Origin: an uncultured Bacilli bacterium
GTDB lineage: Bacteria > Bacillota_I > Bacilli_A > RF39 > UBA660
Assembly (NCBI GenBank): GCA_947626095.1
Contig: CANQQV010000006.1
Span: 21,643 to 85,642, forward strand
DNA: 64,000 bases
Direction: 5' to 3'
The notes beneath the pieces are model-generated. The model did not search any database. It was not told the DNA's origin and was given only the letters and a program-made list of their open reading frames with translations. The first letter of the stretch is position 1; each line of letters starts with the position of its first letter. Made by a program: the position numbers and the translations under genes. Of this stretch, positions 1 to 27,488 are shown piece after piece.

Positions 1-500
1 TCAGATGATTTTAAATCGTTACCAATATGGCCATTAAATCTTAGGGTAGTAAAACGATCGTTATATGCCTCAGTAAAAAAAGGTAGTAAGTCTGAATCAA
101 AGTCTTGGTAAAATAATTGAGTTAGACTTAAAGCTTTATCATTAGTTAAATAGGAGCCGGTAATAGCAGATATATCGAATTCTTCACCAAAATAACTTTT
201 TAATAAGCTTTCAACTTCATCTATTTTATCTTCTAATGATTCTAAAGAAAAGTAAAAATCTTGAATTAGAGAATAATAGCGACCATATAAGATACGTTCA
301 CTATTGATGTTATATAATCTTTGTTTAAAACTTTCACTTGGTCTTTTGATTGAAGATAGATTTTCAAAGACAAGGTGTTCGGATGAATCTAGGACTTTTT
401 CTAGATATAATTTTCTTTGAGGGTTAGTTTCTTTTTCAATTATTTTGCGTAATAAATTGATTTGTTTTAAGAAGTCATCGGTCGTCCAATTATATCTCAT
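1..500 (-). CDS. Hypothetical protein, 3' end truncated by window edge (MRYNWTTDDFLKQINYLRKIIEKE...)
   Basis: ATG at 500-498 with a GGAGGGG SD upstream; frame stays open to the left edge. Not in the ORF track. Confidence 0.8.
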   Translation of the reverse strand, partial: MRYNWTTDDFLKQINLLRKIIEKETNPQRKLYLEKVLDSSEHLVFENLSSIKRPSESFKQRLYNINSERILYGRYYSLIQDFYFSLESLEDKIDEVESLLKSYFGEEFDISAITGSYLTNDKALSLTQLFYQDFDSDLLPFFTEAYNDRFTTLRFNGHIGNDLKSS

Positions 501-574
501 AAAATCCCCCTCCATTTAAGTTGCTATGATATCATAGGTCTTCTTAAATATCAATTATTAAGTGAAATTATTGG

Positions 575-603
575 TTGACTTAAGTATTAAAAAATACTAT
601 AAT
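575..603 (+). promoter_or_regulatory. Sigma-A type promoter
   Basis: TTGACT (575-580), 17-bp spacer, TATAAT (598-603). Confidence 0.8.
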
Positions 604-609
604 GATTAT

Positions 610-1537
610 AGTAAGGAGGTATATAGAAGATAACATTTCTAATATCTTAGTATATTTTAGGGCATAAGCTTGAAAAATAGCGAAAATATAAAGAAATTTA
701 TATTTCATTTTGTGAAAAAATATATTTTTTAACGATATTAAAGAATAGTCTTATGACTATTATGGTTCTTATGAACCCCTCAACTTTAACATGTGCGATT
801 AATGCATTTGTATATTAGTAATAGATTACTAAGCCAAGAAGTTGATTTTCCAGCATATTTATATATGACTGAAGAGAATAATTTATAATTATTCTATTAT
901 CTTCTATTAATCGTTAAATGGTAATTTTGTTCATCCCCATTTAATCATTATCTGAAAAGAGTACTGAATACCGTTATATTCTACTAATAGTTAGCATTTT
1001 CTATTTTTCCAATATGGATAGTAGTTATATAATGAAAATGATGAATAGCTTTCGTACTAGCTTAGGTTTTATTTTGATAATAAAATCGCAAGTATGTTAT
1101 GCATTTTGATTTTTGTTTAGTAATTAACAGTTATCTTATATGAATTTAGCTTTATCAAAAGTAAAGCTTTTGGGATTATAAGGTAATATGGAAATTATTT
1201 GAACATGATGAAAGCGTTTGAAAATGATGGATCTTAAACTTGTCTTGCAAGGGAATCAAGTAATCCAACCGTTGAGTATAGGTTGGGAGGGTAGCTCCCA
1301 AACAACTTATACAATATACTATATCGTGTGAGCTCATATAAATATAATTTAGCGATGAATTGGAGAATCCTTATACGAAAGTATAGTTTAAACGTGAATG
1401 TAAAATTTACTTGAAATATCTGAATAAAAACAGATATTTATGATACTATCAAAATAGAATGTTACATTACACTATACGGAGGTTCATTTAAAACGGACAA
1501 ATGCAAATGTAGGAACGATTAATGTTCCTATTTTTTT
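610..1537 (+). ncRNA. Candidate large, highly structured non-coding RNA (~930 nt), family unassigned
   Basis: No ORF of 60 aa or more on either strand; bounded by promoter and terminator; many local and long-range helices, including GCAA and GAAA tetraloop hairpins. Confidence 0.7.
1510..1537 (+). terminator. Intrinsic terminator
   Basis: TAGGAAC-gattaat-GTTCCTA followed by T7. Confidence 0.8.
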
Positions 1538-1639
1538 GTGATTAATTTTATAGTAGCTATTGAATTAATGACAAAAAAATTATAAAATTATAATGTATAA
1601 TAAGATATTCTTGAATAAAAGAATAAAGGGGATGTTAAT

Positions 1640-2797
1640 GTGAAAGCAGTTGTTGGTTCAACTATTCAATCTAGCAGTTATGATGCAGGAATAGAATTAG
1701 CTAAAAATGCAACTAAAGGACTTAGATTACCAAAGATAGGATTTTTATTTGGTTCAACTAAATATACCCAAGCTGAGTTACTTAGAGGGGTTAAATCTTT
1801 TAATCCTGATATAAAAGTTATTGGTTGTACTTCAAATGAAGCAATTATGACACCAGATGGAATTATTTGGAATGAAGATGGTTTTGCAGGAATGTTATCT
1901 TTAGAAGATAATGAACTTACTGTTGGGGTCGCTTTAACAGAACGTGGAACTGATGCAAGAGTAGCAGGTAGAAGAGTAGCGAAAGAAGCAATGGCAAATG
2001 CAGAGAAAAAATATCCACCTTTAGCATTTGCTTTATTTACAACACCTGGTAGTGAAGAAGAATATATTAAGGGTATTCAAGATGTATTAGGAGAAATACC
2101 AATGTTTGGTGGATCAGCTGCCGCTGAAAATAGTAGTCTTAATTGGAGTGTTATTTGTGAAAATAAGTCGACTAATGATGGATGTGCCATTGCTATTTTC
2201 TATACAACAAAAAAAGTTAAGAATGTCTTTGTAAATAATTATGAAAAAACAAAAAATATGGGTATTATTACTAAAATGGATGGACCAAGAAAAATTGTAG
2301 AAATAGATAATTCTTTAGCATTAAAGAAATATGCTGAATGGAATGATATCGAAGCTGAAGATATAATGGATGATAAGCTAGCTTATGCAGCTATTTCTGT
2401 ACCATTAGGAGTAAGTACAACAAAAGGTGAGACTGTATTAAGTCATCAATTACTTAAAGGTAATCATGATTATTCGTTAGAAATTGGTTCAAATGCTAGT
2501 GTTGATACAGCAGTCATGCAACTTAAGATAACTGAGGATGGAATGATTGAAGGACTTGTTAAAGGAATTAATCAACTTAAAAATGAATTTAAAGCAACAG
2601 CAATAGTTTTATTGCATAGTAGTGGTCGTAAAAAATATTTAGATGAAAGAATAGATGAAGATTTTGTAGCATTGAAAAATGCGATTGGGGATATTCCTTT
2701 TATTGTTACATTTACTAATAGTGAGTTTGGAACGGTAGATCATTCTGGAGCTTTGGTAGCTAATTTATCATTATCTATTACTGGGTTCTCTGAATAG
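1640..2797 (+). CDS. FIST domain (FIST-N/FIST-C) sensory protein
   Basis: VIGCTS, PMFGGSAA, SxxRK and FxTxSEFG motifs typical of FIST proteins. Confidence 0.8.
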   Translation: MKAVVGSTIQSSSYDAGIELAKNATKGLRLPKIGFLFGSTKYTQAELLRGVKSFNPDIKVIGCTSNEAIMTPDGIIWNEDGFAGMLSLEDNELTVGVALTERGTDARVAGRRVAKEAMANAEKKYPPLAFALFTTPGSEEEYIKGIQDVLGEIPMFGGSAAAENSSLNWSVICENKSTNDGCAIAIFYTTKKVKNVFVNNYEKTKNMGIITKMDGPRKIVEIDNSLALKKYAEWNDIEAEDIMDDKLAYAAISVPLGVSTTKGETVLSHQLLKGNHDYSLEIGSNASVDTAVMQLKITEDGMIEGLVKGINQLKNEFKATAIVLLHSSGRKKYLDERIDEDFVALKNAIGDIPFIVTFTNSEFGTVDHSGALVANLSLSITGFSE

Positions 2798-2880
2798 TTA
2801 TAAAAGAATATATTTTCTATAATTATATTATATATTAATGGTCATAAAAAAAGCTTGACTATTGAGCTTTTTTTAGTTGG

Positions 2881-3150
2881 AAAAAATTTTAAAAAAACGC
2901 AAAAATTAAAAAATGTAAATTTTATGAAAATCGATTTTTTGAAAAAAAAGTAAAATATTGTAAATCGAACACAAAAAAATCAAAAAATGCTTTGAAGTCC
3001 CTATTTTAGGGACTTTTTCTTATAACAATATTCTTGATAATATCAAAAATAAAAAAACAAAAATCCCTAAAAAACGGAAAAAATTAAAAAAATTAAAAAA
3101 TGCAAAAAGGCAATTTTTGAAATTTTTTGCAAAAATAAAACTTTTCTTTT
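2881..3150. other. Phased A-tract region with palindromes upstream of nrdD
   Basis: A/T tracts recurring about every 10 bp; AAGTCCCTA-ttt-TAGGGACTT at 2995-3015. Confidence 0.5.
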
Positions 3151-3205
3151 TTATATATGTTTTATATAATGAAATTAGGAAAAGGTAGAAGGAGAGTTTT
3201 TAAAT

Positions 3206-7778: not shown

Positions 7779-7854
7779 TGGCGCCTGATGTAGGACTCGA
7801 ACCTACGACCTAACGGTTAACAGCCGTGCGCTCTACCGACTGAGCTAATCAGGC
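7779..7854 (-). tRNA. tRNA-Asn (GTT)
   Basis: GCCTGAT/ATCAGGC acceptor stem, CTGTTAA anticodon loop, GGTTCGAGTCC T-arm, encoded CCA. Confidence 0.97.
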
Positions 7855-20162: not shown

Positions 20163-21923
20163 TTACCTACTTAATTTAAGACTTTTAAGACCTTGATAAT
20201 ATATATTACTTGAATTAATGTTTTGCATATTACCGATTATCATATTTAAATCATCTTGACCTAAATTTTTGACAACATTAGAAGTTAAGATATCTGGAAC
20301 TGGTATTTTATTCAATTCTTTTTTATATACTTTACCAATTCCTCTGGTTGAGACAACGTGTGGGATTTTTGATTTTAAAACAGCATCTCTAAATGACCAC
20401 ATAAATTTTAAAATTTGTTCACTAGGATATAAACATTCTTCTAGTTTACGATCATAATCAAAGAAGATATTATCAAAACGATCTAGAGTAGCAGCATCTA
20501 AAGCAGTACGACCAACATATTCTAAGTCAGCACCTTTACCCCAAGTATTAGCAGCAGCTATAATATGAAAGTTTGGATGTCTATCAATTGTTTCGTGAGG
20601 GAAAGCCATATAACCATTAGCTAAAGCTGAGTTAATAACAATTAAAGCTGAAGGATCCGAATTATCAATTTCATCTAAGAAGAATAAACCACCATTTTTA
20701 AAAGCTTTATAAAATTCAGTTTCACGATAAGTACCACCAGCATCAATAAAACCAGTTAGTTTAAATTCATTTGAAGCATTATTAGTATAATACATATGAA
20801 GACCTAAAGATTCTGCTACTTGTGAGACAGCAACGTTTTTACCACTACCAGCTGGTCCTATTAACATGATAGGTTCATCTAAAGCAGTTTGTCTTAGTAT
20901 TTGTTCATATTTTTCGTGGTAGAAACCACCAGTTGTATGAGCTATTTCCGTATTATTTATGATAATACTATGAGATACTGGGACGTTAATAGTCTTAGTA
21001 TAATCTTCAAGGATTTTATCAAAGATAGTTCTTAGTAAATGATTAATATTATTTTCTGTATTAAATTCTTCGATAGCATGCTTAATTAATTCGAGTAAAG
21101 CCTTTTTGGTTTCAGCATTTAATTCCTTAGTTAAATAATCACTTATCTTTTTTTGAGGATCAGGTGAAGCTAAATAATCTTCTAAGTTTTTATTTATTTT
21201 ATCTTTTACTGCTTCATTAGTAATAGAGAATAGTAGGGCATTTAAATTATCTAATAAGTTATCAGCATTTTGTCTAGTACGAGGAATAAATGAATCATCT
21301 TTAATTTTTGTACCATCAATATTAAATTCTTCACCATTAACGATATAGGTATTATTTTTTACTTCTTCTATTTCATTACAGAAATAGCTTAAAATATCAC
21401 GACTATTTGAATACATTACTTCATGATTTATTTTAGTATAACCTATATATAGATGAGTGTTTTCATTATTTGGTTTAGTAACACCAGCAATTAATTCTTC
21501 AGAATTAGCATCCCAAATAACAGAACAAAAATGCATGTAATTACTAAGGATTTTAAATACTTCACATTTATGATCACGATAAAGTAAATTAATTAATCTT
21601 TGATATCGATCACTATCATCAAGACGATAACGGCGAAAGTCATTAATAGCATTTGTTATTTCGTCTTGATTATAACCACTAACAGTTAATATTTTATTAT
21701 TAGAATTCCAGAAGGGATCACGATCTTCCATATAACTATCGTAGACAATTTTAGCGAAAATTATCCCTGTATTTGATATCTCTTTGTGATTAATAGAGTA
21801 GTTATATGGACAATTGGAATTAAGCCTTCTTTGAATGTCTTCATAGCTAAATTCTCTTCCTTTATATGCTATGAAAACAGTTCCACTTTTTTCATAGTCT
21901 TCCATATTTTCTCTTCCTATCAT
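20163..21923 (-). CDS. MoxR/CobS-like AAA+ ATPase with N-terminal class II GATase-like domain
   Basis: GPAGSGKN, LFFLDEID, IIAAANT, LDAATLDRF; N-terminal FCSVIWD...LYIG...VMYSNS pattern. Confidence 0.75.
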   Translation of the reverse strand: MIGRENMEDYEKSGTVFIAYKGREFSYEDIQRRLNSNCPYNYSINHKEISNTGIIFAKIVYDSYMEDRDPFWNSNNKILTVSGYNQDEITNAINDFRRYRLDDSDRYQRLINLLYRDHKCEVFKILSNYMHFCSVIWDANSEELIAGVTKPNNENTHLYIGYTKINHEVMYSNSRDILSYFCNEIEEVKNNTYIVNGEEFNIDGTKIKDDSFIPRTRQNADNLLDNLNALLFSITNEAVKDKINKNLEDYLASPDPQKKISDYLTKELNAETKKALLELIKHAIEEFNTENNINHLLRTIFDKILEDYTKTINVPVSHSIIINNTEIAHTTGGFYHEKYEQILRQTALDEPIMLIGPAGSGKNVAVSQVAESLGLHMYYTNNASNEFKLTGFIDAGGTYRETEFYKAFKNGGLFFLDEIDNSDPSALIVINSALANGYMAFPHETIDRHPNFHIIAAANTWGKGADLEYVGRTALDAATLDRFDNIFFDYDRKLEECLYPSEQILKFMWSFRDAVLKSKIPHVVSTRGIGKVYKKELNKIPVPDILTSNVVKNLGQDDLNMIIGNMQNINSSNIYYQGLKSLKLSR

Positions 21924-27411: not shown

Positions 27412-27488
27412 TGGGGCGGTATGTGGGAATCGAACCCACGCGTGCCAGAGCCACAATCTGGTGTGTTAACCACTTCACCAACACCGCC
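27412..27488 (-). tRNA. tRNA-His (GTG)
   Basis: Encoded G-1, TTGTGGC anticodon loop, GGTTCGATTCC T-arm, CCCA end. Confidence 0.97.

Follow-up and report, generated by a model that had tools for sequence, protein, structure and literature searches.

The stretch of DNA examined here, henceforth the window, comprises 64,000 nucleotides (nt) of a contig (CANQQV010000006.1, forward-strand positions 21,643 to 85,642) from an uncultured bacterium of the order RF39. Near its start, an intergenic region of 1.1 kb lies between a minus-strand gene coding for a 392-amino-acid (aa) protein (window 3-515, ending at 515 on the side of the gap and continuing beyond the window start; L001:278-1456) and a plus-strand gene coding for a FIST-domain protein (1640-2797; Pfam: FIST_N + FIST_C). 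We consider it almost certain that ~610-1537 on the plus strand, divergently oriented with respect to the 392-aa gene, is the gene for a stand-alone, non-coding, multi-domain structured RNA of ~930 nt. Such an RNA had been proposed in an earlier sequence-only reading of the window, and the proposal is now supported by folding, covariation, and the lack of a coding signal, with a new class being favored over a divergent member of a known one.

The gene is delimited by a sigma-70-type promoter (TTGACT at 575-580, a 17-nt spacer, and TATAAT at 598-603; plus strand) and an intrinsic terminator (plus strand; a stem-loop at 1509-1531 followed by a T run to 1537), both of which had been recognized in the sequence-only reading (575-603 and 1510-1537, respectively). 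The former matches the consensus at 11/12 positions and is the top promoter-like site of window 1-3000. Its weight comes from its conservation, because the number of promoter-like sites in that region, 20, is no higher than in shuffled sequences (20.0 +/- 4.8): the -35 and -10 elements are in register in 16/18 rows of an alignment of homologs, and the same layout is seen in 7 further metagenome copies. From the position of the -10 box we infer a transcript start at ~609-611. The terminator is one of two terminator-like sites found; its stem (helix 39 of the consensus described below) is 93% paired with compensatory changes in 4/7 pairs, and the hairpin with its T run can be read by eye in 14 of the 18 rows. 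It is preceded by a conserved single-stranded 3' tail (1491-1506, plus strand) of columns invariant in the same alignment, ending in an invariant AAATGCA.

As had been noted for the 1.1-kb gap, there is no open reading frame (ORF) of appreciable length, the longest being of 53 aa (1176-1337) and 42 aa (580-708), both on the minus strand. The longest stop-free frames in 19 homologs are of 56-95 aa and differ in frame and position, and the period-3 power of column variability is 0.78 for the RNA, where shuffles average 1.0, and 168 for the neighboring FIST gene aligned likewise; a decayed protein gene, which the sequence-only reading had named as a possible undoing of its proposal, finds no trace in these data. 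Transcription is weakly addressed by contigs from RNA libraries: six runs from three studies contain part of the stretch, and contigs of four runs hold pieces within 652-1419 with 88-100% likeness, which speak for presence in RNA libraries, not for level, strand, or ends. One contig extends 30 nt further upstream, to ~622, in the sequence of a close relative. Within window 1-3000, the contigs cover bins of 601-1500 only and leave 1-600 and 1501-3000 bare; these bare flanks are no evidence of transcript ends, because the runs were chosen with this stretch and are represented by contigs only.

Two checks that had been suggested for the proposed RNA, comparison with dinucleotide shuffles and covariation among homologs, both came out in its favor. 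The minimum free energy of 605-1537 is -217.7 kcal/mol, as against -175.1 +/- 6.2 kcal/mol for 20 dinucleotide shuffles (z = -6.8). RNAalifold on 18 sequences predicts 189 pairs, of which 99 show one or more compensatory changes, and a RIBOSUM-scored consensus of the same number of sequences, which we used for counting with controls, comprises 281 pairs in 39 helices. In the latter, 93.3% of the cells are paired, 139 pairs are changed on both sides, and the covariation score is 0.330; when the partners are slid by 1-3 columns, a control that we prefer because it preserves the phylogeny, the corresponding values fall to 35.6-46.9%, 49-61, and 0.071-0.085. Furthermore, none of 500 shuffles reached the observed paired cells, both-side changes, or covariation score. 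The consensus holds 574 G-U cells against 57 A-C cells, in line with the earlier argument that G-U pairs fix the plus strand, though the structure was itself derived on that strand.

The compensatory changes uphold a predicted secondary structure that is nested and organized in three domains, including long-range helices whose strands lie 280-440 nt apart (all features on the plus strand). A 5' tail (609-622) leads into Domain I (623-907), which is closed by the long-range helix 623-633/897-907 (8/10 pairs changed on both sides) and comprises an optional sub-domain (650-725), hairpins at 743-761, 851-871, and 875-895, and a three-way junction (781-844) with hairpins at 789-811 and 815-832. The sub-domain is missing in two homologs (L016, L021) and substituted by unrelated sequence in two others (L013, L061), with the rest of the RNA kept, and on this comparative evidence it is a modular, dispensable element. 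Domain I is followed by a hairpin at 908-950 (7/13 pairs compensatory), a small hairpin at 951-960, and a long branched hairpin (972-1034; 12/16 pairs compensatory) with an invariant 10-nt loop (991-1000). Domain III (1046-1485) is closed by a 15-bp long-range helix (1046-1061/1471-1485), one pair of which is split evenly between G-C (9 rows) and A-U (9 rows), and contains a hairpin (1065-1087), two helices (1089-1094/1408-1413 and 1100-1105/1397-1402), a variable arm (1120-1197), the 3' core, and a hairpin region (1414-1466). The 3' core (1224-1387) is the most conserved part of the molecule, with a mean column identity of 84%; it is enclosed by helices 1213-1221/1388-1396 and 1228-1235/1363-1371 (1213-1396 with the outer helix) and includes an invariant 5-bp hairpin (1372-1385), which bears a GAAA cap in the window and other 4-nt loops in relatives.

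Most of the helices drawn in the sequence-only reading recur in this covariation-supported consensus, viz., 623-633/897-907, 744-761, 780-786/839-845, 815-832, 851-871, 875-895, 972-979/1027-1034, 981-986/1019-1024, 1065-1087, 1131-1140/1177-1186, 1148-1168, and 1276-1312. The GAAA hairpin at 1372-1385 is likewise present and, being invariant, displays no covariation, and what is retained of the proposed element at 1414-1439 is its outer stem, which is 95% paired with 2 compensatory pairs. Four others are unsupported or stand only as alternatives: 651-658/683-690 has 0 compensatory pairs, as against 5 for the consensus helix 650-664/711-725; 1269-1273/1492-1496 (81% paired, 1 compensatory pair) cedes the closing of the 3' domain to 1046-1061/1471-1485; 1394-1403/1462-1472 (92% paired over 7 pairs, 0 compensatory) competes with 1397-1402/1100-1105; and, within the nested stack proposed at 1228-1267, strand 1228-1235 has its partner at 1363-1371 instead. 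The hairpin drawn at 764-777 falls in a lineage-variable stretch and is unscorable.

The tip of the variable arm differs in length between species, and its helices are rich in compensatory pairs (7/7 in 1120-1126/1191-1197, 5/6 in 1134-1139/1178-1183, and 11/11 in 1147-1155/1161-1169). In one species (L020 in genome G003) the tip, at a position corresponding to window ~1147-1172, carries a 714-nt insert (L020:741-1455) made up of ~13 tandem copies of a ~45-nt unit that resembles the arm-tip motif of other species. A cmscan search found no Rfam match on this insert, which has the appearance of a displayed hairpin module expanded by repetition within the structured RNA. The 45-nt repeat array features GGA-type motifs; a function as a CsrA sponge was considered and rejected, as CsrA (PF02599) was not found in the genome from which the window derives (91% complete).

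A comparison with known RNA families leaves the molecule without an assignment. A cmscan search of the 64-kb window, at gathering scores, with the 4,227 families of Rfam 15, which presumably include both GOLLD and ROOL, recovered only two tRNA genes (7782-7854 and 27415-27487, minus strand); the region 450-1700 at E<=10 yielded three meaningless matches (E at least 5.3), and 16 homologous loci at E<=1 yielded nothing relevant. The sequence-only reading had likewise seen no signatures of RNase P, tmRNA, or group II introns. The genes for RNase P RNA, tmRNA, and 6S RNA sit on other contigs of the same genome, and a derived version of any of them was rejected on the ground that each has its own gene elsewhere. 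A 'variant 2' of the OLE RNA is described as common in RF39 bacteria (PMC11332333), and we therefore searched the genome with the OLE model (RF01071), which detected a genuine OLE RNA of ~485 nt on another contig (G000:C5:43457-43942; 239 bits). Of 24 other genomes of the genus, 20 have OLE as well; the reduced genomes of this genus keep two large ornate RNAs, OLE and the ~930-nt RNA. When the two are compared by blastn, all that emerges is a scatter of matches 10-65 nt long and in either orientation (best E 0.002), and nhmmer with the family hidden Markov model (HMM) returned nothing at E<=10. With OLE, RNase P RNA, tmRNA, and 6S RNA all encoded elsewhere in the genome, a new class is better supported than a divergent member of a known one. 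No description of the RNA was found in the literature, where the supplementary tables of motif surveys (PMC8040213, PMC11109978) could list it, and it is very probably undescribed to date.

The RNA is single-copy in its own assembly (34 contigs, 91% complete, 7.9% contamination); a candidate second copy or shared promoter on contig C7 was discarded, the 52-nt match lying inside an ORF and representing an AT-rich chance similarity. Full-length relatives with 65-91% identity were recovered by blast in 23/24 genomes of the same genus, Candidatus Coprovivens (GTDB genus UBA11963, family CAG-1000, order RF39; PMC8035907). A covariance model of the 3' core (R1; 166 positions) matches 24/27 genomes of the genus; the three without a match have a completeness of 85-88%, and in one of the three a BLAST match is truncated by a contig end. 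The RNA lies between the 392-aa gene and the FIST gene at every locus with enough flank. The former neighbor shows 30-75% aa identity (16 loci) and the latter 53-83% over the full length (15 loci), so that the nucleotide identity of the RNA is at or above the aa identity of both neighboring proteins. Such strong purifying selection argues for a cellular housekeeping or scaffold role over that of a mobile or regulatory accessory.

Outside the genus, R1 was run on 149 genomes representing as many further genera of the family, on 150 genomes from elsewhere in the order, and on 149 from elsewhere in the class (one of these unscored), with 0 matches. These being samples searched with a narrow model, the RNA is to be called not found rather than absent there, and, as far as searched, it is confined to one genus of uncultured gut Bacilli. 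Of 80 further genera of the family, 14 have a FIST homolog, there with protein genes directly upstream; the nhmmer search upstream of FIST in those 14 genera gave nothing better than E = 3.5. A syntenic homolog in sister genera was on these grounds rejected, and, with FIST genes of other genera lacking the RNA, it looks like an addition in the ancestor of the genus. A pattern of the core had 0 matches in viral contigs, and blastn detected no match among phage or plasmid records. In metagenomes, the same pattern occurs on 35 contigs, 34 of which match R1, and exact-pattern matches come from records labeled as metagenome-assembled genomes (MAGs) of Candidatus Coprovivens, uncultured Bacilli, Tenericutes, and Erysipelotrichaceae. 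A pattern match in a Rhodobacteraceae MAG (L024) was dismissed as chance, since blastn shows no homology.

Three loop motifs in the 3' core, which we surveyed in 49 distinct cores among 58 matches (metagenome copies included), switch between different self-complementary sequences. Motif C (GAGCTC, 1330-1335, plus strand) lies in a loop of 25 nt, and the helix closing this loop (1323-1328/1354-1359) shows two compensatory changes. Across 24 species, its positions 1-6, 2-5, and 3-4 form standard pairs in 71/72 cells, with the 2-5 pair occurring in five types (A-U 9, C-G 6, U-G 5, U-A 3, G-C 1). In 45/49 distinct cores the motif is fully self-complementary, in nine forms (GAGCUC 14, GUGCGC 11, GUGCAC 6, GCGCGC 4, GCGCGU 3, GGAUCC 3, GUCGAC 2, UCGCGA 1, and ACGCGU 1). 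On a 23-row tree built without the motif columns, it underwent at least nine changes, and GAGCUC occurs in two separate clades. We further screened a full-length alignment of 46 rows, 289,180 column pairs in all, admitting only pairs that display all four Watson-Crick types, each in at least two rows, with at least 90% pairing: 5 pairs pass, four of which lie in predicted helices, the fifth being 1331/1334, i.e., the 2-5 pair of motif C.

Motif B (AGCT, 1293-1296, plus strand) forms the center of a 7-nt hairpin loop on a stem (1283-1291/1297-1305) in which 9/9 pairs are compensatory; it reads AGCU in 41 and GAUC in 6 distinct cores, the loop being absent in 2; a separate count of its two pairs gives A-U 19 / G-C 4 and G-C 19 / A-U 4. 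Motif A (CTTGCAAG, 1244-1251, plus strand) reads as a perfect Watson-Crick palindrome, 6-10 nt long, in 49/49 distinct cores, and its center alternates between GC (40) and CG (9), with the CG form occupying two separate positions on the tree. Among the 690 six-column windows examined, switching from one perfect palindrome to another is confined to those at 1245 and 1330. As adjacent bases, or bases with only two others between them, cannot pair within one strand, this pattern speaks for pairing between two copies of the RNA. According to Kretsch et al. (bioRxiv 10.1101/2024.12.08.627333; Nature 2025), covariation of adjacent loop nucleotides marks intermolecular kissing loops, and this signature matches those seen by cryo-electron microscopy (cryo-EM) in OLE (L9.3) and GOLLD (L21a). 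Two hallmarks of homo-oligomeric ornate RNAs are found here, namely a large, non-coding, multi-domain fold supported by covariation, and palindrome covariation, adjacent nucleotides included, in all three motifs.

At the other end of the molecule, an orphan Shine-Dalgarno (SD)-like sequence, AAGGAGGT (613-620, plus strand), lies 10-17 nt past the -10 box. This element (AAGGAGGU), which follows the presumed 5' end by a few bases, is invariant or nearly so in the 18-row alignment; AAGGAGG falls within the (nearly) invariant block, and the GGAG core is kept in all seven extra metagenome copies. No conserved ATG, GTG, or TTG follows it in that alignment, and no plus-strand ORF of at least 25 aa begins behind it in the window. 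One metagenome copy (L074) has an ATG at the right distance, which is isolated and probably due to chance. The 3' end of Bacillota 16S rRNA is complementary to SD sequences. In Bacillota, untranslated SD-like sequences near a 5' end, termed STAB-SD, can stabilize the RNA and are proposed to bind the 16S 3' end or the 30S subunit and to block RNase J1 (PMC4113751), and the genome holds two RNase J paralogs above cut-off. By analogy, the simplest reading of the element is that it probably acts as a 5' stabilizer; a bolder one is that it may dock ribosomal subunits. The likeness to the STAB-SD of Bacillus thuringiensis cry3A extends to the untranslated SD-like 5' sequence and the presence of RNase J; however, the cry3A element heads an mRNA, whereas the present one heads a non-coding RNA, for which binding and stabilization are predictions. 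A role as a stand-in for a ribosome hibernation factor was considered and rejected, such a factor (PF02482) being present in this genome and in 23/24 genomes of the genus.

We propose that a sigma-A-type promoter of its own would drive transcription of the RNA, which would be released at an intrinsic terminator likewise of its own. Its 5' SD-like sequence, which starts no frame, would serve as a STAB-SD-type stabilizer by binding the 16S 3' end or the 30S subunit and would block 5'-to-3' decay by RNase J. As the central step, each of the three loops would pair with the same loop of a second copy in a symmetric kissing interaction, yielding a symmetric homo-oligomer, dimeric or higher, of the kind formed by OLE, ROOL, and GOLLD: the loops stay self-complementary while their sequence changes, and it is on this account that each is taken to pair with its counterpart. 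On balance, we favor the view that this is a new ornate RNA class that self-assembles through palindromic loops. A more ambitious version, which we put forward tentatively and hold to be possible but on the unlikely side, is that it might be a fourth natural RNA to form a closed, symmetric, RNA-only ring or cage, here of at least four copies joined by three types of kissing loops in an OLE-carrying gut bacterium with a reduced genome. As each protomer would end in an exposed, invariant SD sequence, such an assembly would present several sites for 16S binding, and 30S subunits could be docked or sequestered by it.

Several observations weigh against self-assembly or parts of the proposed model. 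Oligomerization is deduced from sequence comparison; motif C is imperfect in 4/49 cores (AAGCUC twice, UCGCGU once, GUGCUC once), which retain a 4-bp core only; and motif B changed only once on the tree, its loop being absent in one lineage (L020, L097). For motif A there are other ways of drawing the fold, namely a hairpin of 3 bp with a loop of 4 nt and, in the window, a hairpin capped by GCAA, and because of these alternatives only its center switch is diagnostic. Within the fold, the structure of 1397-1470 is ambiguous, and a loose all-against-all filter passed 650 non-consensus against 64 consensus pairs, which means that shared ancestry inflates raw or lenient covariation counts; such lenient filters, including a wider one, revealed no convincing pseudoknot, being swamped by clade-level co-substitution, and of the column-pair screens only the strict one for all four Watson-Crick types was informative. 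The 16S 3' end is missing from the assembly, where the rRNA is apparently unassembled, and its complementarity to the SD-like element is assumed. The RNA-library evidence consists of contigs only, and three of the four runs are recorded as RNA, the remaining one being guessed to be so. Lastly, an essential cellular RNA would not usually be confined to a single genus, and R1, with an effective sequence number of 1.42, is narrow and could miss distant relatives.

The same conservation would be compatible with a structured RNA, equally new, that functions as a monomer or as a ribonucleoprotein (RNP) scaffold, with the palindromic loops being protein sites or alternative intramolecular conformations. 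Whatever speaks for a structured non-coding RNA speaks as much for this alternative, the overlap of motif A with alternative registers involving its own stem (CUUG ... CAAG) and the dispensability of loop B in one lineage agree with it, and OLE, the closest analog in the same cell, acts as an RNP (PMC11332333). However, a protein site is not expected to drift through nine unrelated forms while always remaining self-complementary, and positions 2-5 and 3-4 of the 6-mer are unable to pair within one strand; moreover, an RNP role and self-assembly are compatible, with OLE doing both (Kretsch et al.). A purely monomeric or RNP-bound molecule appears rather unlikely to us. The constant placement of the RNA directly upstream of the FIST gene in the same orientation, with only a weak promoter-like site (9/12; 1560-1588) between the terminator and the FIST start, raises the alternative of an exceptionally long cis-acting leader that senses a signal and controls read-through of the terminator at 1509-1537. 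This is improbable, given that the 14 of 80 further genera with FIST homologs place protein genes and no such RNA upstream, that the consensus folds offer no alternative pairing to the terminator stem and no evident anti-terminator, that the size and three-domain architecture are far above those of known riboswitches, and that the RNA is more conserved than the gene that it would control.

Self-assembly of a new class must also be set against the alternative that the RNA is a very divergent member of OLE, GOLLD, ROOL, RNase P, tmRNA, or the group II introns that is missed by covariance models. The size class, host phylum, and palindromic-loop signature that it shares with OLE and GOLLD would accord with this, as would the frequency of OLE variants in RF39 (PMC11332333); against it, no Rfam model scores the RNA even at E<=10, the OLE, RNase P, tmRNA, and 6S models find genes of their own elsewhere and the resident OLE shows no similarity, R1 comes up empty in the sampled genomes of the family, order, and class, and phage, plasmid, and viral matches are lacking. 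Such hidden kinship strikes us as very improbable. Scarcely credible is the remaining option that there is no RNA gene at all, the region being instead the relic of a protein gene or an element acting at the DNA level, for instance a spacer or a set of palindromes bound by protein. In its favor, the minus strand, too, has a lower folding energy than its shuffles (z = -5.3), and the loop motifs are palindromic as DNA; against it stand the lack of codon periodicity and of a shared frame, the tenfold excess of G-U over A-C, the compensatory changes in the long-range helices, and the promoter and terminator conserved in the right places.

Among the closest known systems is OLE (RF01071), which is likewise large, ornate, non-coding, and highly conserved, occurs in anaerobic Bacillota, the same genus included, and forms a homodimer with an L9.3 kissing loop that covaries between palindromic tetranucleotides (Kretsch et al.). 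The new RNA is, in contrast, nearly twice as long as the ~485-nt OLE of this genome, has three candidate self-pairing loops, and is a separate gene on another contig with no detectable sequence or model similarity. OLE is spread across the Bacillota, with 2,822 hits (PMC11332333), whereas the finds of the new RNA are limited to one genus. OLE is also partnered with the gene for the OapA protein; the neighbors of the new RNA are the genes for a FIST protein and for the 392-aa protein, which has no Pfam family. GOLLD and ROOL, the RNA-only nanocages, are comparable in their size class (580-830 nt or more) and multi-domain ornate fold. They are frequent in phages and prophages; the new RNA differs in being chromosomal, single-copy, and syntenic, with no viral, phage, or plasmid match and no match to an Rfam model. 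The symmetric 'self-interacting' kissing loops of GOLLD and ROOL covary at adjacent nucleotides, with the GC to CG switch in GOLLD L21a paralleling that of motif A (Kretsch et al.). Their assemblies have been observed, whereas that of the present RNA is predicted from comparative data. A further parallel is the dimerization initiation site of human immunodeficiency virus 1, a 6-nt self-complementary loop that starts RNA-RNA dimerization and has different palindromes in different lineages; it is a viral genome-packaging signal, whereas here the corresponding element is one of three loops in a bacterial chromosomal non-coding RNA.

To our knowledge, bacterial non-coding RNAs longer than 500 nt are very few, and what OLE, GOLLD, ROOL, and raiA do has long been in question. 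Cryo-EM work of 2024-25 is reported to have found that three RNAs of this kind self-assemble without protein. If our proposal holds, the present molecule would be an independent and longer self-assembling RNA with three defined loops, in a lineage that also carries OLE. The proposal is directly testable, as the RNA can be transcribed in vitro from its sequence alone; metagenome-derived GOLLD and ROOL reportedly were produced in this way. The locus also indicates that a genus-restricted RNA can be more constrained than the neighboring proteins, which bears on the rate at which large RNAs originate de novo.

A few minor features of the locus and its relatives may be added. One full copy of the RNA, together with its neighbors, occurs on a contig of a MAG labeled Muribaculaceae (L041), probably as a result of a binning error. 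The FIST gene is followed by a second gap of ~400 nt (2798-3205) with no listed ORF of at least 100 aa. The 392-aa upstream neighbor matches no Pfam family even at E<=0.1; it contains an HEYGH motif, which suggests that it may be an unclassified metallopeptidase.

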